Assembly: GCF_003334385.1 (NCBI RefSeq)
Contig: NZ_QOWN01000014.1
DNA length: 64,000 nt
Reading direction: 5' to 3' (one strand)
Source: Escherichia coli
GTDB taxonomy: Bacteria; Pseudomonadota; Gammaproteobacteria; Enterobacterales; Enterobacteriaceae
Below the pieces are notes generated by a model, which saw only the letters and a program-made list of their open reading frames with translations, did not search any database and had not been told where the DNA came from. How positions within the stretch are numbered: the first letter of the stretch is position 1; the number at the start of each line of letters is the position of its first letter. A program made the translations under genes and the position numbers. Positions 26,691 to 60,567 of this stretch are shown piece after piece.

Positions 26691-26885
26691 GCGATGGTTC
26701 TCCAGGTTTACGGGCAGGTGGTTAAAACACAATAAACCGGAAGAAGGCGAAGATCGAGTGGATGTTCAGGAGCGAACGGCAATTAGCAACAGAGTGAGAC
26801 TCATGACAAACGTACATCCGCCAGAGGCACGACCTTTATAAGAGCATGAAAGAACATCAACTTATTGAATTTTTAGGATTTTATT

Positions 26886-54070: not shown

Positions 54071-56167
54071 TTAGCGGAAATTGACGCTACGGTCGCTGGT
54101 CATGTCATACAACTGGAACTTACGCCCAAGTTGTTGACCACCGTCACGCGTCAGCGGCGTCCAGCCAATCGCCGCACGGCTGCGTGTCGGGCCAGACGAG
54201 AAGAGATCCAACGGTACCGAGACATACACGCCTTTGGTGAAGTCCCCTTCGCCGTACTCCTCTTTCGAAACATTAGTGATCGTGGCATAGCCACCCACCA
54301 CCACGCCGCTATCAAAGCGTTTGGCGATCTCCAGCGTGCCGCCTTTATCCCCTGCCAGATACTGCCCGACGCTGGCTTTAACTAACACATCCTGAGCGAA
54401 AGATGGCGTCCAGTAGGCGGTCAGATGTCCGGTTTTCACGCTGTAGTCGGTGAATTTCATCATATCTTTTGCACTACGCCAGTCGCGCTGTTTAACGTAG
54501 TTGGCATCCAGACCAAACGCCCAGTTGCTGTCCAGCGGGCGATACAACACTTCTGCCCCCGCACCGCCAAACATGGTTTCGAGATAACCACCGTAGACCT
54601 GACCGTAGAAGCCGTTGCCCAGATGCTGGAAGTAGTTGGCTTGCAGGTTATTCACATAGACATCGTTCTGCACATACTCGCGCACATGGGTACGCACGCG
54701 CGGTAAGTGCGAGTCCTGCGGAGGATTAGTGTAGTTAAACTTGTCGTAGTTGTTGGCAAGATTTGCAAACAGGCTGCCGGTGGTCAGCAGATGGTCCGTC
54801 AGCCACAAATCTGCCGTTCCCATCACGCCCAGCTGATACATGTAAAAGTTTTCCGGGCCACCGACCGACTGGTTCAGCACCGGATCGATATGGAAATCAA
54901 AGCGTGATTTGTCGATATACCAGCCCTGCTCGGTGGACTGCGGAACCACTGGCTCGACGCGTTTTTGCGCCAGCGTCGTTTCGTGGCCCAACGGCTCTCC
55001 GGCGAGATGATTTTTCAGGCTGGCGACATCGGTTTCCGTCGTCGCCTGCGGCATGTTAAGGCGATTTTCCGTAATGCGGATCGTTTTGATCCCATCCGGC
55101 AGATCGTTCATCACGATCCGATTCGCACGGATGATCCCTTCGCGCGAATCACGATATTTCACCTGCTCGCCGGTAACATACAGCGTATCGCCTTTCGCCT
55201 GGATCTGTGGATCGGCAAGTCCGGCATTGTATTTCAACAGCGTTAACTGATTCGCCACCACCGAATGCTGCAAAATGGCATCCTGCGGCTGCGGTTGATA
55301 TTGCGGGCGGGCGTTATCGTTGTAAGACGGGCGCAGATCGTTAAAGTTGGTGCGCAACGTAACGCCAAACATAAAGGTGTTGCCACGTTCATAGCTAAGG
55401 TTAACGTCGGCCCAATCGGTAACGCGATAAATCGCACCGACGTTAAACTTACTTTTTTGCTCCAGCTTCCCGGCAAAATCCTGCTGATAATTATTGCCTT
55501 CATACTCCAGTTTCAGGCGCAGCGGTTGCCAGGGCGTCTGGTATTCCACGCCGCCAAACAGTGAGGCAGGACCGTGGAACATCTGGCTACCGTCGATAGA
55601 TCCCGCCTGTTTGTAGCTGTTATCGCGATAGCAATATTTATCACTGGCTGAACAGAGCGGATTTTTCACATTACCGCTGGTGCCCAAATATCCCCAGCCC
55701 AGGCCGAGCGTAAAATCGAACGGCCCCCAGGCTTTGCTGGCAACAAGATATTCCGCATCAAACAGCCCCGTACCGCCGATATCCCGCGCACCAACCGCCA
55801 CTTGCGGCAGCCAGTAACTCTCTTCCCACAAACGCAGTTTGAGATCGAAGGCTTTATCTTTATACGTTTGATCGCCAGAGAACGCTTCGACGCTGCTGTA
55901 CTGCCGGGTGCGCACGTCGGTGTAGCGCAGCGTTGTTTCCAGCCACGGGAAGAGTTGCACTGAAGCTGAGTAATAACGGTACTGATCGTTATCGCGATAG
56001 TTCAGGCTCAACTCCCCTTCCCGCGCCATGCGTGCGGTGGGCGTTTGTAATAATCCTACGCCACCGAAATCCGACTGCGACGGGCCAATGGGCGCAGGAT
56101 ATGTTTCGCCGTAGCAAGCCATGCTAATGCCCAGCGCCAGTAAGCTAAGCAGATGTCTTTTTTTCAT
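54071..56167 (-). CDS. yjbH: YjbH, outer-membrane lipoprotein-like component of the yjbEFGH exopolysaccharide locus (698 aa)
   Basis: 698 aa with signal peptide [20 protein letters not shown]; last gene of four co-oriented overlapping genes. Confidence 0.9.
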
Positions 56168-56904
56168 TATTGAGGTATCCGCTGCGTCAGAGTCTGAAGA
56201 ATGTCGGCGTTAAGGGCATCAGGCGTCTCACTCCAGACGGAGTCCGCGAGGCCAACATAAATAATGCTGCCGGGCATCGGCTCTACGTGACGCTTGTTCC
56301 AGTAAGCCACCGGCGCTTTTTGCGTGCGTCCGTCCGGGTAAACCACCCACGCGTAGCTGCGATCCGCACCGCTGAGCAGGCTCTGGTCAGAGAGATAGCT
56401 CGCCACGTCGCGACCTGGAGTGAATGGCTGCTTGCCAGGACGGCTGATAAGCCCGAACAACGTGACCGTGGACGGCGGTGGTCCGACCCACAGCGTGTAG
56501 TTGCCCTGCAACGGCGGGTTACCGCGTTCGGCAACGCGGACGATATCGGGATCAAGATTGATTTTTTGCCTGCCCGTCACTTTCAACGCCTGAATTTGCT
56601 GGCGTAAGGCGTTAATCGCAGCGGCATCGTCGGCGCTGGAATCTGCGCCCTGTTCTGCCAGCCGTGTCAGCAACGCCTGCTGCTGACGCAATGCTGCCGC
56701 CGTTGCCAGCTCTTCGCTAATCACCGCACCGGGCCACCAGCTGTTTGCCAGCCGCGGTTGGCCTACCAGATCGATTAAATGCTCTGCGCCCGTTAGCGTT
56801 TTGGCCTCACTGCTGCCATTGCTGAACACCTTGACGGTTCCTGCCGCGAAGACCGATGACGCTCCCACACTCAAAAGCAACGCGACAATAGTTTGTTTAA
56901 TCAT
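56167..56904 (-). CDS. yjbG: YjbG, periplasmic protein of yjbEFGH locus (245 aa)
   Basis: ATG at 56902-56904 gives 245 aa [20 protein letters not shown]... (signal peptide); 4-bp overlap with yjbF. Confidence 0.88.
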
Positions 56905-57539
56905 TGTTTTGCCGCCTTGATGAGAGTGGTTTTCACCGGAAAATAATCCGCGCCGAGATACTGTTCCGACTGGCGAATTTGCCCTTCGCTGTCGATCCAA
57001 TAGCGGTTATGCCAGCGCGCCTGGTCGGTGGAGACTTCTTCGTCCAGCACGCGAACCGGGGTTTCATCGCTGCCGACTTTGACGGTATCGGTGCCATCCC
57101 ATTTGAAGACTGAGCGTGCGGTGGCGTAGCGTACCTGCTGGTACTCGGTCCAGCCCATCGTGCGCGTCCAGCTTGCGCCATCAACGATTTGTGCGGGTTT
57201 AATCAGCGGGTCGGCAGCAAGGTTATTCACTTCAATCAGGTTGTCGCCGCCGAGCAGAGTCTTCACCAGACGGCCATGTTGGGTAACGAGAGTAGCCTGA
57301 TCCTGAGTGACCCATTTTTGTTGTCCGTCTTCAGCGAAGGCCAGCACCACAAATAACTGCGGCCCGCCATTAAGCTGCATGTACTGGCTGGCGTAGGGCA
57401 TATTTTGAATATCATCATCCGTCAGCTGTACGCCTGGCGGGCCGAACAGACTGTCCCACAGTGAATTGCCCAGCTCTTTAGTCGTGGCTGAACAGGCCTG
57501 TAATAGCAGGCAGATAAGAATGAGTGCAGGTCGCTTCAC
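56901..57539 (-). CDS. yjbF: YjbF, lipoprotein of yjbEFGH locus (212 aa if GTG start at 57537-57539)
   Basis: Lipobox LLQAC in signal peptide; no ATG in N-terminal region, GTG at 57539 gives 212 aa (ORF track starts a further 10 codons upstream at another GTG). Confidence 0.8.
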   Translation of the reverse strand: MKRPALILICLLLQACSATTKELGNSLWDSLFGPPGVQLTDDDIQNMPYASQYMQLNGGPQLFVVLAFAEDGQQKWVTQDQATLVTQHGRLVKTLLGGDNLIEVNNLAADPLIKPAQIVDGASWTRTMGWTEYQQVRYATARSVFKWDGTDTVKVGSDETPVRVLDEEVSTDQARWHNRYWIDSEGQIRQSEQYLGADYFPVKTTLIKAAKQ

Positions 57540-57652
57540 GACTCTTCTCCAGAGGGGCAGAATAACCACACCGGAGTGTGGTTATGGTAAATCCCTTCAT
57601 ACTTCAAGCCACAGATGCAATGACTCAAATTATTTTGGGGATACATACTTTA

Positions 57653-57895
57653 TTACTGGGTACTGGTGGTCGTGGTTGTGGTGGTCCCGGTATTAGAACC
57701 ATCACCGCCACCGGTTGCCGCGAGCGCGACACCCACCGCCGAGCTTACGGTGCTGACGCTGGTCGCGGAGGAACTCCCCGCCGAAACCGACGTTGCTGCC
57801 GACCCTGCCGCTTCGCCCACCTGTACAGGTGCAGCCCACGCAGAAGTCGCCGCAAGCGCAGATATGGCAAAAATGCCATACAGAACTTTTTTCAT
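57653..57895 (-). CDS. yjbE: YjbE, small secreted low-complexity Ser/Thr/Gly/Ala-rich protein (80 aa)
   Basis: 80 aa [21 protein letters not shown] followed by low-complexity tail ending [10 protein letters not shown]. Confidence 0.88.
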
Positions 57896-58299
57896 AACAA
57901 TTTCCCTTCATTGAATGAATGGAGATTTACCCAAAAACATTTCGGGCGGGATCGAGTATACACAACTAAAGCATGCGAATTACGGCGCGGGGAATTAGCG
58001 ATGGCGTTTTAGGATAATTGGAATGAATATCAAATATAAGTTTCAACCTATATTTAAATAACAATAAAAATCATAAACTTAAAATAAAAACAAAAGCAAT
58101 TAATCTGCGTATTTTCCGAAATAAACAACGATTAAAAATCTATTTTAGGATTAACCTCACGGTATGATTTCCGTTAAATTACAGACAAGGGGATTTATCT
58201 GATAAAAAAATGCCGACATAACGTCGGCATTGTTATTAAGGTTATTTAATCAATCGTGCTATGTATTAATTGCCGAATACGATGTACATATCGGCATCG

Positions 58300-58383
58300 A
58301 CCTGTAGGCCTGATAAGACGCGACCGCGTCGCATCAGGCATCGGTTGCCGGATGCGGCGTGAACGCCTTATCCGGCCTACATA
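58300..58383. repeat. REP cluster downstream of pgi
   Basis: TGTAGGCCTGATAAGACGCGACCGCGTCGCATCAGGC and GCCGGATGCGGCGTGAACGCCTTATCCGGCCTACA units. Confidence 0.9.
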
Positions 58384-58393
58384 TCGACGATGA

Positions 58394-60043
58394 TTAACCG
58401 CGCCACGCTTTATAGCGGTTAATCAGACCATTGGTCGAGCTATCGTGGCTGCTGATTTCTTTATCATCTTTCAGCTCTGGCAGAATACGGTTCGCCAGCT
58501 GTTTACCCAGTTCCACGCCCCACTGGTCGAAGGTGAAGATGTTCAGGATCACGCCCTGAGTAAAGATTTTGTGCTCATACAGCGCAATCAACGCACCCAG
58601 GCTGAACGGAGTGATTTCACGCAGCAGGATGGAGTTGGTCGGGCGGTTACCTTCGAATACTTTGAACGGCACCACGTAGTCAAGCGTTGCCGGATCTTTA
58701 CCCTGATCACGATATTCCTGCTCAACCACTTCGCGGGATTTACCAAACGCCAGCGCTTCGGTCTGGGCGAAGAAGTTAGACAGCAGTTTCTGGTGATGAT
58801 CAGAGAGCGGGTTATGGGTGATAGCCGGAGCGATGAAATCGCACGGTACCATTTTGGTTCCCTGGTGGATCAGCTGGTAGAACGCGTGCTGACCGTTAGT
58901 GCCTGGTTCACCCCAGATAATCGGGCCAGTCTGGTAATCCACAACGTTACCGTTACGGTCAACATACTTACCGTTGGACTCCATATTGCCCTGCTGGAAG
59001 TACGCCGCGAAACGGTGCATATACTGGTCATACGGCAGAATCGCTTCAGTTTCCGCACCAAAGAAATTGTTGTACCAGATGCCAATCAGCGCCAGCAGTA
59101 CAGGCAGGTTTTTCTCGGCAGGCGTGGTGGAGAAATGCTTGTCCATCGCGTGTGCGCCGGAAAGCAGTTCAACGAAGTTATCAAAGCCGATGGAGAGAAC
59201 AATCGACAGGCCAATCGCTGACCACAAAGAGTAACGGCCGCCAACCCAGTCCCAGAACTCGAACATGTTGGCAGTATCAATACCAAACTCGCCAACGGCT
59301 TTGGCATTGGTGGAAAGCGCCGCAAAGTGTTTTGCAACGTGTTTTTCATCACCTGCCGCTTTCAGGAACCAGTCACGCGCGCTATGGGCGTTGGTCATAG
59401 TTTCCTGAGTGGTGAAGGTTTTAGATGCTACCAGGAACAGCGTGGTTTCCGGGTTTACTTTTTTCAGCACTTCCGCGATGTGAGTCCCATCGACGTTAGA
59501 AACAAAGTGCATGTTCAGGTGGTTTTTGTACGGACGCAGAGCTTCGGTCACCATGTATGGGCCGAGGTCAGAACCGCCGATCCCGATGTTCACTACGTCA
59601 GTGATTGCTTTGCCGGTATAACCTTTCCACTCACCGGAAATAATCGCTTCTGAGAAGGTTTTCATCTTCTCCAGCACCGCGTTGACTTCCGGCATTACGT
59701 CTTTGCCATCAACCAAAATCGGGGTATTGCTACGGTTACGCAGCGCTACGTGCAGCACGGCGCGGTTTTCAGTGCGGTTGATCTTCTCGCCAGAGAACAT
59801 CGACTTAATCGCGCCCGCCAGATCGCACTCTTTCGCCAGATCCTGTAATTTCGCCAGCGTCTCTTCAGTGATGCGGTTTTTGGAGTAATCCACCAGCATC
59901 TGATCGTCGAAGGTTGCGGAGAACTTAGAAAAACGATCGCCGTCTTTAGCAAAAAGATCGGCGATCGTAACGTCTTTCATTTCATCGAAGTGTTTCTGTA
60001 GTGCCTGCCAGGCAGCGGTCTGCGTTGGATTGATGTTTTTCAT
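58394..60043 (-). CDS. pgi: Pgi, glucose-6-phosphate isomerase (549 aa)
   Basis: ATG at 60041-60043 gives 549 aa ([19 protein letters not shown]...). Confidence 0.97.
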
Positions 60044-60261: not shown

Positions 60262-60567
60262 GTACTACCTGCGCTAGCGCAGGCCAGAAGAGGCGCGTTG
60301 CCCAAGTAACGGTGTTGGAGGAGCCAGTCCTGTGATAACACCTGAGGGGGTGCATCGCCGAGGTGATTGAACGGCTGGCCACGTTCATCATCGGCTACAG
60401 GGGCTGAATCCCCTGGGTTGTCACCAGAAGCGTTCGCAGTCGGGCGTTTCGCAAGTGGTGGAGCACTTCTGGGTGAAAATAGTAGCGAAGTATCGCTCTG
60501 CGCCCACCCGTCTTCCGCTCTTCCCTTGTGCCAAGGCTGAAAATGGATCCCCTGACACGAGGTAGTT
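60262..60567 (+). promoter_or_regulatory. Lysine riboswitch (L-box) in the lysC 5' leader
   Basis: Long GC-rich structured leader directly upstream of lysC containing AGAGGCGC ... GGAGGAG ... CCUGAGGGG-type segments; lysC is a well-known riboswitch-controlled gene. Confidence 0.75.

Follow-up and report, generated by a model that had tools for sequence, protein, structure and literature searches.

The exopolysaccharide promoters of cps and wza carry the RcsAB box, reportedly defined by Wehland and Bernhard in 2000. At narG, NarL occupies distal sites near -200, IHF bends the DNA near -125, and an activator acts from a proximal position. Within operons, intercistronic stem-loops such as the malE-malF REP and that of papB-papA set differential expression of the genes on either side. 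The group 4 capsule operon gfcABCDE-etp-etk contains a four-gene set paralogous to yjbEFGH, headed by GfcA, which like YjbE is a small Ser/Thr-rich exported protein. YjbE has 80 aa and GfcA 101 aa, and the two are homologous according to the literature. The locus considered here is the yjbEFGH operon described by Ferrieres et al. (2007), under the same regulator, with expression reported to be RcsA/RcsB-dependent, osmotically induced, and antagonised by RpoS. Locus, operon structure, and Rcs control have been published since 2007, so nothing categorically new is added to them; the subject of this analysis is the DNA around the promoter.

The window analysed is a 64,000-nt stretch of E. coli DNA, reversed in orientation relative to K-12. 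All genes of the locus lie on the − strand: pgi (58394-60043), yjbE (57653-57895), yjbF (56901-57539, with a GTG start), yjbG (56167-56904), and yjbH (54071-56167). The 854-bp stretch 57540-58393 differs from MG1655 by 5 SNPs and has matches in 5426/5426 complete E. coli genomes. As 57540 is the first base past the yjbF start codon, this range, which was taken from the initial annotation, mixes two intergenic regions, the pgi-yjbE gap (57896-58393, 498 bp) and the yjbE-yjbF spacer (57540-57652, 113 bp), the latter with elements of its own. The initial annotation also described the four downstream genes as co-oriented and overlapping. They are co-oriented, but overlaps are limited to yjbF/yjbG (ATGA) and yjbG/yjbH (TAATG), with yjbE and yjbF 113 bp apart.

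The gap had been described as ~500 bp, unusually long, and extremely AT-rich, and all three descriptions hold. Its segment 58009-58208 is the lowest-GC 200 bp of the entire 64 kb, at 24% vs. 50.7% overall, and only 2.4% of 200-bp windows have a GC content of 30% or less; the AT-rich string originally quoted lies at ~58053-58097. For the corresponding 64 kb of K-12, the annotation shows only three gaps of comparable length, lysC-pgi (524 bp), tyrB-yjbS (501 bp), and soxR-ghxP (545 bp, with ryjA), leaving pgi-yjbE as the longest co-directional gap without an annotated feature inside. A long AT-rich gap at this position (335–510 bp, 30–40% GC) is kept in ~20 genera. A 32-aa ORF in the AT-rich tract (57966-58064, TTG start) was rejected as a candidate gene as it sits in the least conserved part.

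Part of the gap consists of repeats. The REP cluster placed by the initial annotation at the pgi-proximal end is present as a BIME of two inverted REPs (58307-58377, − strand) in the pgi 3′ UTR, 17 nt past the pgi stop codon, followed by a degenerate third REP-like piece (58272-58297). The Rfam family naRNA4 matches the BIME with 79.5 bits on the − strand and 54.8 bits on the + strand (gathering score 59.5). The BIME contains the inverted repeats I5 and I6 and the direct repeat D1, and E. coli genomes have REP-driven matches at 38 places each (median). Its units are inverted, palindromic, present in many copies, and located between the pgi stop codon and the terminator, as expected of REP/BIME elements. 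REP and REP-like sequence makes up ~130 of the 498 bp and is missing from most other genera. This composition, together with the lowest GC content of the window and the ease with which degenerate boxes match by chance, would suit a generic AT-rich spacer, namely H-NS-coated or curved DNA without site-specific architecture that owes its length to REP insertion. However, the gap still measures 335–370 bp in ~20 genera without the REPs.

An intrinsic terminator for pgi lies inside the gap at 58199-58231 (− strand), where a terminator scan placed it 314 nt upstream of the yjbE ATG. It has a 9–10 bp stem, AATGCCGAC-GUUAU-GUCGGCAUU, followed by U7, and folds at -13.7 kcal/mol (z -4.96). With ten pairs ahead of T7 on the − strand, it has the G+C-rich hairpin and U-run of an intrinsic terminator. 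Different genera form the hairpin from differing stem sequences, and its T-run stays on the pgi-sense strand. Read on the + strand, the same hairpin has the tail UGUUAUUAAGG, a poor U-run in E. coli.

Conservation, consensus, and spacing beyond the terminator were counted in 63 aligned Enterobacteriaceae loci. The profile shows a near-invariant block from the -10 element to the ATG and discrete blocks upstream. Five of these upstream positions are treated as candidate sites, four RcsB-type half-sites and one IHF-like core. Site A (58189-58202, − strand, TCAGATAAATCCCC) is RcsB-box-like, with one mismatch to TNRGAN4TCYNA, and lies 8 nt past the terminator T-run, a distance fixed in 59 loci. The pattern T-N-R-G-A-N4-T-C-Y is found there in 55/63 loci (consensus TTaTcnGATaAtTCc), and site A and the terminator are both lost in 8 loci with a gene inserted beside pgi.

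Site B (58142-58159, − strand, TGAGGTTAATCCTAAAAT) is the best RcsAB/RcsB-like box of the gap and lies ~200 nt upstream of the predicted transcription start site (TSS). Its match to the RcsAB consensus, 10/14, is the highest in the gap, a score that occurs 43 times by chance in the window. Two RcsB boxes have been defined, TN(G/A)GAN4TC(T/C)NA and the weaker TN(G/A)GAN4(A/C)CTNA (PMC7913699); site B has one mismatch to the first, and on the + strand (58146-58159) it matches the lower-affinity box TNRGAN4(A/C)CTNA perfectly. It also contains an exact TCCTAAAAT, the canonical RcsB right half-site (10.1101/2025.05.13.653802), and yjbE is among the motif-scan candidates of the same study. T-N-R-G-N5-TCYNA is present at site B in 63/63 loci.

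Site C (58106-58119, + strand) is an inverted half-site, TGCGTATTTTCCGA, which reads ATCCTAAAAT in most genera and has the + strand consensus TccgnatanTCcnAAAataa in 61 loci. Site D (58006-58023, − strand, TTCCAATTATCCTAAAAC; consensus tccanTtnTCnnAAAacc) is the promoter-proximal half-site, centred ~68 nt upstream of the predicted TSS. It scores 9/14 against the RcsAB consensus and contains an exact ATCCTAAAA, a sequence with 3 copies in the 64 kb, 2 of which lie in the pgi-yjbE gap, 136 bp apart and in the same orientation. Half-sites A, B, and D are direct and C is inverted, and they share the core TC(C/T)(T/G)AAAA (TCCTAAAA). Between C and D, ~120 nt upstream of the predicted TSS, site X (58069-58081, + strand, AATCATAAACTTA) resembles an IHF core with one mismatch to WATCAANNNNTTR. 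This match is perfect in only 15/63 loci (consensus aaatCAnnnanTTanaat), with only CA and TTA conserved at 90% or more, and the consensus match is weak evidence for a predicted IHF site. Site X also overlaps the -10-like TAAAAT of a promoter-like site on the + strand (58058-58085).

Across the 63 loci the inter-anchor spacings are two-valued, with the values ~11–12 bp apart: 43/32, 45–46/34–35, 59–60/47–48, and 56/44–45. Between B and C, 55 loci have 43 bp whereas 7, E. coli among these, have 32 bp, and D lies 56 bp from the -10 in 50 loci and 44/45 bp in 8. Indels that are seen only in steps of ~11–12 bp speak for DNA bound by proteins in helical phase and against an RNA. In loci with a gene other than pgi next door, the distances of sites B, C, and D and of the -10 from the ATG are unchanged as well. 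An AT-rich spacer of the generic kind would not be expected to combine quantised indels, module boundaries that survive gene insertion, and discrete blocks conserved at 90% or more between freely varying sequence, and this explanation is considered very unlikely.

Assignment of the phased sites to RcsB is a separate matter. Like the exopolysaccharide promoters controlled by RcsA-RcsB, the AT-rich upstream boxes of yjbE carry the TCCTA right half. Unlike classical RcsAB promoters, the gap has four half-site-like motifs over ~200 bp and no single 14-mer with three or fewer mismatches, a search of the E. coli gap with the classical RcsAB consensus TaAGaatatTCctA finding no match at this level. 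Matches to the degenerate RcsB box number 37 in the window vs. 60 expected, so the box shows no enrichment. As chance matches are common, the assignment of the sites to RcsB rests on their conservation and on the known regulator. The search for RcsAB boxes suggested by the initial annotation does return several conserved RcsB-type motifs in the AT-rich DNA; a full-text literature search for the site sequences returned only unrelated papers.

A parallel for the layout is narG. Candidate distal sites for RcsB, a NarL/FixJ-family protein, at ~-170 to -250, an IHF-like core at ~-120, and a proximal site at ~-68 would reproduce the order of elements at that promoter. The restriction of spacing to whole helical turns is a further shared feature. 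Among the differences, IHF binding here is guessed from a weak consensus, and no Fnr-like partner is known at the yjbE promoter.

The distal block coincides with a described RNA family. Rfam RF02053 (STnc430) matches 58092-58241 on the + strand, a segment that includes the pgi terminator hairpin together with sites A–C, and its 77.5 bits exceed the family gathering score of 47. Both the E. coli match and the Salmonella seed fall in the pgi/yjbE gap, and further matches are found in the Salmonella, Citrobacter, Enterobacter, and Kluyvera loci. If STnc430 were a real small RNA, it would run on the + strand from ~58092 to the hairpin 58209-58231, divergent from the yjbE promoter, and the distal block would owe its conservation to an sRNA gene. 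The sigma-70-like + strand site 58058-58085 (9/12) ends 7 nt ahead of the match, its TAAAAT/TATAAT element is fairly conserved, and the Salmonella segment folds well (z -5.8). However, the family was predicted computationally, has 0 reads in either cDNA library (control or Hfq), and was never probed by Northern blot (Sittka 2008, Table S3), and its mentions in the literature are confined to two unrelated papers. Across 50 sequences RNAalifold finds no conserved structure (-0.1 kcal/mol), the E. coli segment folds no better than shuffles, cmscan flags several non-canonical pairs, and the U-run after the + strand hairpin is poor in E. coli. Genomes without the hairpin still have sites B and C at the same spacing, and both the Escherichia loci and a second lineage, a Kluyvera-like group of loci, have an 11-bp deletion within the putative RNA. 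A small RNA gene is regarded as quite unlikely on this evidence. The conserved columns of the family coincide with the pgi terminator and sites A–C, and the Rfam model probably describes a terminator and protein-binding DNA rather than an RNA gene.

The promoter itself appears to lie close to yjbE. The -10 hexamer TATACT (57955-57960, − strand), within the invariant block GTTGTGTATACTCG, is the sole promoter element that is invariant across the 63 loci and ends 60 nt before the ATG. It has no recognisable -35, and the promoter scan reports no sigma-70-like site on the − strand. The hexamer 17 bp upstream of TATACT is GTAATT, which is consistent with an activator-dependent promoter. Judged from the sequence, transcription of yjbE would start at ~57947-57949 and give a 5′ UTR of ~52 nt. 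Neither yjbE nor its coordinates are listed in the supplementary data of Kim 2012, Ettwiller 2016, or Adams 2021.

The initial annotation had proposed instead that the AT-rich DNA is a long transcribed leader. A promoter past the pgi terminator, or read-through from pgi, would then produce a regulatory 5′ UTR of 170–300 nt. The AT-rich DNA does contain -10-like hexamers on the sense strand; TTGCTT-17-TATGAT, for example, would give a leader of ~168 nt, and the block that contains TATGAT is partly conserved. This pair scores only 8/12, too low for the scan to call, and read-through is blocked by the strong U7 terminator. The distal part of the AT-rich tract, which runs from that terminator to a little beyond site C, has no consensus structure (-0.1 kcal/mol), and the B–C segment folds no better than shuffles on either strand, with mean z values of -0.84 and -1.13 (+0.2 and -0.5 in E. 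coli). No cis-regulatory Rfam family matches the gap, and what is conserved consists of sequence motifs with spacing quantised at 11–12 bp. A long leader is unlikely on these grounds: the pgi terminator lies within the gap, TATACT is near the ATG and leads straight into a hairpin whose variation suits only sense-strand RNA, and the AT-rich part has no conserved RNA structure on either strand. The initial annotation named a short leader with the AT-rich region untranscribed and unbound by regulators as the outcome that would speak against it; the leader is probably short, and the AT-rich DNA probably is bound by regulators. Its broader suggestion of complex regulation agrees with the conserved RcsB-type motifs and the Rcs, osmotic, and RpoS control in the literature; it is the route through a long leader that lacks support.

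The short 5′ UTR contains two hairpins. Hairpin 1 (57929-57947, − strand, GCCCGAAA-UGU-UUUUGGGU) forms the 5′ end of the predicted transcript. In the RNAalifold consensus 97% of its cells are paired vs. at most 70% with the partners slid, and its pair types include CG/UG/UA and GC/GU. The G-U pairs and the U-A alternation are valid only on the yjbE-sense strand. Its covariation score of 0.147 is reached by 4/500 shuffles, a modest excess. Hairpin 2 (57903-57923, − strand) pairs UCC-A-UUCA with UGAA-G-GGA, and the Shine-Dalgarno sequence, GAAGGGA, forms its 3′ arm 7 nt ahead of the AUG. All 7/7 pairs are invariant in 47 distinct sequences, with variation in loop positions only, and this invariance leaves hairpin 2 without covariation support. 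It is part of the minimum-energy fold of the E. coli UTR (-13.8 kcal/mol), which is not significantly below shuffles (z -1.73). A repeat of ATGAAGGGA at 57592-57600 and 57903-57911 was considered as a duplicated ribosome-binding site and rejected, as the second copy is the terminal repeat of an ERIC remnant in the yjbE-yjbF spacer.

That spacer carries a short-form repeat at 57592-57646 (− strand), which is ERIC-like as judged by the ERIC primer sequences. The insertion is confined to Escherichia among the loci examined. A Citrobacter locus has a full-length element in the corresponding position, and the short form can be aligned to its two ends. Copies of the full-length element are scattered through intergenic DNA of E. 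coli, at a median of 11 places per genome. A 40-aa ORF (57478-57600) was discarded because its start falls within the Escherichia-specific remnant.

Directly 3′ of yjbE the spacer also contains a strong hairpin (57562-57585, − strand), a 10-bp stem, AUAACCACAC-UNCG-GUGUGGUUAU, followed by UUCUG. It is the perfect inverted repeat I11 and folds at -19.4 kcal/mol (z -4.28). Its stem does not vary among the loci listed, and its loop takes only the forms UUCG, UCCG, UGCG, and UACG. The tail is UUCUGCCCC in E. coli and UUUUG/UUUCG in most genera, and the terminator scan makes no call here. The hairpin probably acts either as a partial terminator or to stabilise the 3′ end. According to Ferrieres 2007, as cited in PMC8208086, yjbE mRNA is more abundant than yjbFGH mRNA, an excess that the invariant hairpin fits. 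A strong hairpin beside the reportedly more abundant upstream message recalls malE-malF and papB-papA. Unlike the malE-malF REP, the yjbE hairpin is unique and non-repetitive, has a UNCG loop, and is identical over 24 nt in the genera examined. Its sequence conservation exceeds what stability alone requires.

The initial annotation had described YjbE as a Ser/Thr/Gly/Ala-rich protein of 80 aa with a poly-Thr tract near its end, and this is accurate: A/S/T/G account for 45/59 residues of the low-complexity mature part, which ends T7-STQ. The N-terminus of the precursor reads as a signal peptide, with MKK, a hydrophobic core, and AWA-AP, and some sources label the protein 'YjbE secreted protein'. 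Pfam PF11106 matches with an E-value of 5.5e-33, residues 1–79 aligning to model positions 1–79 of 79, while no NCBIfam model matches YjbE, YjbF, YjbG, or YjbH. The C-terminal stretch and a length of 80–82 aa are kept in ~20 genera. A homologue search recovered no distant relatives, mainly truncated or frameshifted copies of YjbE, three of which were included in the alignment used for folding. AlphaFold2 gave no confident fold for YjbE alone (mean pLDDT 47.9). The mechanistic role of the protein had been called poorly defined, which agrees with the literature consulted.

Taken together, the gap probably contains ordinary elements around the known Rcs-activated yjbEFGH promoter, with upstream activating DNA and a short leader. 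Under this explanation, pgi mRNA would pass the REP pair and stop at the hairpin-U7 terminator (58231-58199). The ~250 bp of AT-rich DNA beyond it would act as upstream activating DNA rather than as transcribed leader. The half-site array, including the IHF-like core that separates the distal sites from the promoter, would keep a constant helical phase relative to TATACT (57960-57955). RcsA-RcsB, or possibly RcsB with another partner under osmotic stress, is expected to bind the half-sites. A bend or loop could then carry the distal sites (~-170 to -250) to RNA polymerase, in the manner of NarL with IHF at the narG promoter. The AT-rich tract may also be coated by H-NS, which is compatible with this explanation. 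Transcription from ~57948 would yield the ~52-nt leader, in which the 5′-terminal hairpin is likely a stability element and hairpin 2 likely occludes the Shine-Dalgarno sequence, resulting in translational damping. The UNCG hairpin would partly stop transcription or protect the 3′ end of yjbE, so that the yjbE message exceeds that of yjbFGH. Control of yjbE by RyhB was set aside, as the reports contain only an unverified 2-fold RNA change, with ribosome profiling unchanged.

A stronger version, which is considered doubtful, treats the gap as a phase-locked, enhancer-like nucleoprotein module that acts with two RNA-level controls, the hairpin over the Shine-Dalgarno sequence and the UNCG hairpin past yjbE, such that YjbE is deliberately over-produced and translationally gated. 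The half-sites and the bend would here integrate Rcs signalling with an osmotic RcsB partner, the same activator as has been proposed for yjbJ, ybaY, and yciGFE. If true, this would fit YjbE as a stoichiometric substrate or carrier, for example a Thr-rich glycan acceptor, over a machine component.

The helical-turn-constrained map of candidate operators offers a tractable case for the action of RcsB at distal sites and with other partners. The combination of an invariant low-complexity protein with two RNA hairpins that do not vary either points to selection on YjbE dosage, an idea which may aid the design of experiments on the role of YjbE and GfcA.

The interval 57540-58393 spans the two spacers on either side of yjbE, as follows from the gene coordinates found. 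The pgi-yjbE spacer (57896-58393, 498 bp) separates pgi (58394-60043) from yjbE (57653-57895), and the yjbE-yjbF spacer (57540-57652, 113 bp) is followed by yjbF (56901-57539, GTG start), yjbG (56167-56904), and yjbH (54071-56167), with all of these genes on the minus strand. The four yjb genes had been described as co-oriented and overlapping; the orientation holds, as do the yjbF/yjbG (ATGA) and yjbG/yjbH (TAATG) overlaps, but yjbE and yjbF do not overlap. The yjbEFGH system is already known, and the initial annotation of this region was largely correct. The window is E. coli DNA. The 854-bp interval is matched in 5426 of 5426 complete E. coli genomes, and MG1655 differs from it at five positions (K-12 coordinate = 4293801 minus window coordinate, reverse complement). 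The pgi-yjbE gap is indeed unusually long: over the corresponding 64 kb, the K-12 annotation has just three others of that length, lysC-pgi (524 bp), tyrB-yjbS (501 bp), and soxR-ghxP (545 bp, which includes ryjA). Its extreme AT-richness is also borne out, with 58009-58208 having the lowest 200-bp G+C value of the window (24%). The neighbouring divergent 524-bp gap carries a lysine riboswitch upstream of lysC (Rfam RF00168, 99.5 bits, 60280-60476, plus strand).

The REP cluster noted near pgi consists of two inverted REPs (58307-58377; naRNA4 hits from Rfam on both strands; inverted repeats I5 and I6), and their family matches a median of 38 places per E. coli genome. Beyond it, a terminator scan identified a 10-pair hairpin at 58231-58199 on the minus strand (AATGCCGAC-GTTAT-GTCGGCATT followed by T7; fold -13.7 kcal/mol, z -4.96). 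Transcripts of pgi therefore cross both REPs and end 314 nt short of the yjbE ATG. For comparison, 80 loci from ~20 Enterobacteriaceae genera were retrieved with YjbF as probe, in most of which pgi adjoins yjbE. The gap is 335-510 bp with 30-40% G+C across genera and thus the long AT-rich spacer is ancestral, while ~130 bp of excess in E. coli is REP material. In an alignment of 63 gaps, the terminator hairpin and T-run form a conserved block, although the stems differ between genera.

The initial annotation read the gap as a long leader of yjbEFGH, which is probably wrong given the terminator inside it, the lack of conserved RNA structure distally, and an invariant -10 element followed by a sense-RNA hairpin close to the ATG. 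The segment from GTTGTGTATACTCG to the ATG (57966-57896) is near-invariant, and TATACT (57960-57955) is the sole invariant promoter element. There is no -35 element, with GTAATT found at 17 bp, and a generic promoter scan of the minus strand found no site. An invariant -10 lacking a -35 fits an activator-dependent promoter. Directly downstream lies hairpin 1 (57947-57929, 7-8 bp), paired in 97% of alignment cells compared with ≤70% when the partners are slid. Its pairs alternate among C-G/U-G/U-A and G-C/G-U. Of 500 shuffles, 4 reached its covariation score. Hairpin 1 belongs to a sense-strand RNA because its G-U pairs, of which there are many, would turn into C-A mismatches on the opposite strand, and the yjbE transcript therefore includes it. 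We infer a transcription start near 57948 and a leader of ~52 nt, in agreement with the position of hairpin 1 right after the -10.

Hairpin 2 (57923-57903, minus strand) covers the yjbE Shine-Dalgarno sequence GAAGGGA. Across 47 distinct sequences none of its seven pairs changes, nor does an A-G mismatch, and variation is confined to the loop. Invariance of both arms suggests that, over and above base pairing, the sequence itself is recognised by an sRNA, a protein, or temperature. The fold of the E. coli yjbE UTR alone is not significant (z -1.73). The 3' arm of hairpin 1 (57930-57942) also has 13-nt, 85% complementarity to 57627-57639, just past the yjbE stop, so that the two arms flank the ORF. 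This is probably chance, as one arm lies inside an Escherichia-specific ERIC remnant.

Upstream of the promoter, the 63-gap alignment resolves into separate conserved blocks with freely varying sequence between them. These include candidate RcsB-type motifs at site A (TCAGATAAATCC, 58202-58189), site B (TGAGGTTAATCCTAAAAT, 58159-58142), site C, which is of the same kind but inverted (TGCGTATTTTCCGA, 58106-58119, plus strand), and site D (TTCCAATTATCCTAAAAC, 58023-58006), together with the IHF-like block X (AATCATAAACTTA, 58069-58081, plus strand). In the region of the retrieved loci (L001-L081) homologous to 57955-58205, each interval between anchors takes two values about one helical turn (~11-12 bp) apart. 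B-to-C spacing is 43 bp in 55 loci vs. 32 bp in seven, C-to-X 45/46 bp (58 loci) vs. 34/35 bp (five), X-to-D 59/60 bp (50) vs. 47/48 bp (seven), and D to the -10 56 bp (50) vs. 44/45 bp (eight). The shorter spacing is carried by different sets of loci in each of the four intervals. Selection on helical register is expected for proteins sharing one face of the DNA, not for RNA.

Eight loci (L014, L045, L046, L052, L055, L057, L059, L063) carry a ~1.5-kb gene insertion adjoining pgi, enlarging the gap to ~2.0-2.7 kb. Site A and the terminator are missing in these, while B, C, D, and the -10 remain at 265, 218, 121, and 71 nt from the ATG, hence the B-to-ATG module belongs to yjbE. The upstream module is intact up to site B in most of the eight. 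The insert holds an opposite-strand ORF of 476-518 aa in seven of the eight, beginning MKTFTVGLFGIGLDTYWPQF in most; L057 has other ORFs in its place. RNAalifold found no consensus structure on the plus strand of the distal gap (-0.1 kcal/mol), and the B-C segment gave mean z values of -0.84 (plus strand) and -1.13 (minus strand) over 50 sequences, and +0.2 and -0.5, respectively, in E. coli. The absence of RNA structure, the helical-turn spacing, and the retention of the module after insertion point to blocks that would act at the DNA level.

The same region contains a match to the Rfam family STnc430 (RF02053, 58092-58241, plus strand, 77.5 bits), on the other strand from pgi and yjbE. The match is immediately preceded by a sigma-70-like site, and the family is also matched in loci of four other genera. 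However, STnc430 originated as a computational prediction, for which Sittka et al. 2008 (Table S3) list no reads in either library and no probing. Its columns overlie the pgi terminator and sites A-C, the region lacks conserved structure, the plus-strand tail in E. coli is a poor U-run, and sites B and C survive in loci without the STnc430 hairpin. A real sRNA here is improbable, and RF02053 may represent something other than an RNA gene.

In the literature, yjbEFGH is activated by RcsA-RcsB, with osmotic and envelope stress as further inducing conditions and RpoS acting against its expression. Sites A and B each have one mismatch to the structural RcsB box TNRGAN4TCYNA, and B exactly matches a weaker variant. 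The best sites for the classical RcsAB consensus score 10/14 and 9/14, which is not significant alone. Block X has one mismatch to the IHF core WATCAANNNNTTR in E. coli and is perfect in 15 of 63 loci. Relative to the predicted start site, A would lie at ~-248, B at ~-200, C at ~-168, X at ~-120, and D at ~-68. At narG, NarL binds near -200 and IHF near -125, a layout that the yjbE sites resemble by analogy only. H-NS is likely to bind the gap, on composition alone.

Sites B and D share the exact 9-mer core ATCCTAAAA, which occurs three times in the 64 kb, twice in the pgi-yjbE gap (136 bp apart, same orientation). The third copy is at 26871-26879 (minus strand), which in K-12 corresponds to the stretch between alr and tyrB. 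A connection of yjbE with yciE/yciGFE appears in two independent sources (PMC8208086; 10.1101/2025.05.13.653802): the genes are induced together in a Salmonella lptG mutant (PMC8208086), and a motif scan lists yjbE and yciGFE as candidates of one proposed osmotic activator whose motif has an RcsB-type half-site (10.1101/2025.05.13.653802). The proposal of complex regulation is probably right, given conserved RcsB-type motifs in helical register and the Rcs, osmotic, and RpoS control reported.

The yjbE-yjbF spacer is 60-65 bp in most genera and contains a 24-nt hairpin after yjbE (AUAACCACAC-UNCG-GUGUGGUUAU, 57585-57562, minus strand; fold -19.4 kcal/mol, z -4.28 in E. coli). Its stem is identical in every locus listed (~60 loci, ~20 genera) and the only loop variants are UUCG, UCCG, UGCG, and UACG, a confinement to the UNCG family that is a signature of RNA-level selection. 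With its short U-rich tail, the hairpin would act as a partial terminator or else stabilise the 3' end, and its sequence conservation is greater than a plain stabiliser needs. In either role it would account for the excess of yjbE over yjbFGH mRNA reported in work cited by PMC8208086.

The spacer is also an insertion hot spot. The additional 50 nt found in Escherichia correspond to both ends of a dispersed repeat (short form, 57592-57646, minus strand), which we take to be ERIC-like from the ERIC primer sequences. The full-length repeat occupies the same site in one Citrobacter locus (L031:3820-3950), and other genera have a REP-like insert downstream of the UNCG hairpin. Laboratory evolution has also yielded IS1 insertions here, and one was found in a natural genome (H1).

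YjbE, a member of Pfam PF11106, is as described an 80-aa Ser/Thr/Gly/Ala-rich protein with a signal-peptide-like N-terminus and a T7-STQ end (A/S/T/G make up 45 of the 59 mature residues, counted manually). A database search returned mostly truncated or frameshifted copies (P0011, P0027, P0035); its GC-rich, low-complexity reading frame seems to invite errors of sequencing or gene calling. Length is kept at 80-82 aa across orthologues, all intact orthologues aligned retain a 13-residue stretch, and the same T7 run occurs in 58 of 63 full-length sequences listed. This constraint is striking for a low-complexity protein. AlphaFold2 did not give a confident fold for YjbE (mean pLDDT 47.9). Mechanistic roles in exopolysaccharide production were said to be poorly defined, and GfcA and YjbE are still described as uncharacterised in the literature, where it is speculated that the Ser/Thr-rich peptide might undergo modification and leave the cell through the GfcD/YjbH barrel. 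We speculate that YjbE is a dosage-sensitive substrate or carrier, with which its invariance, excess message, and Shine-Dalgarno occlusion would agree.
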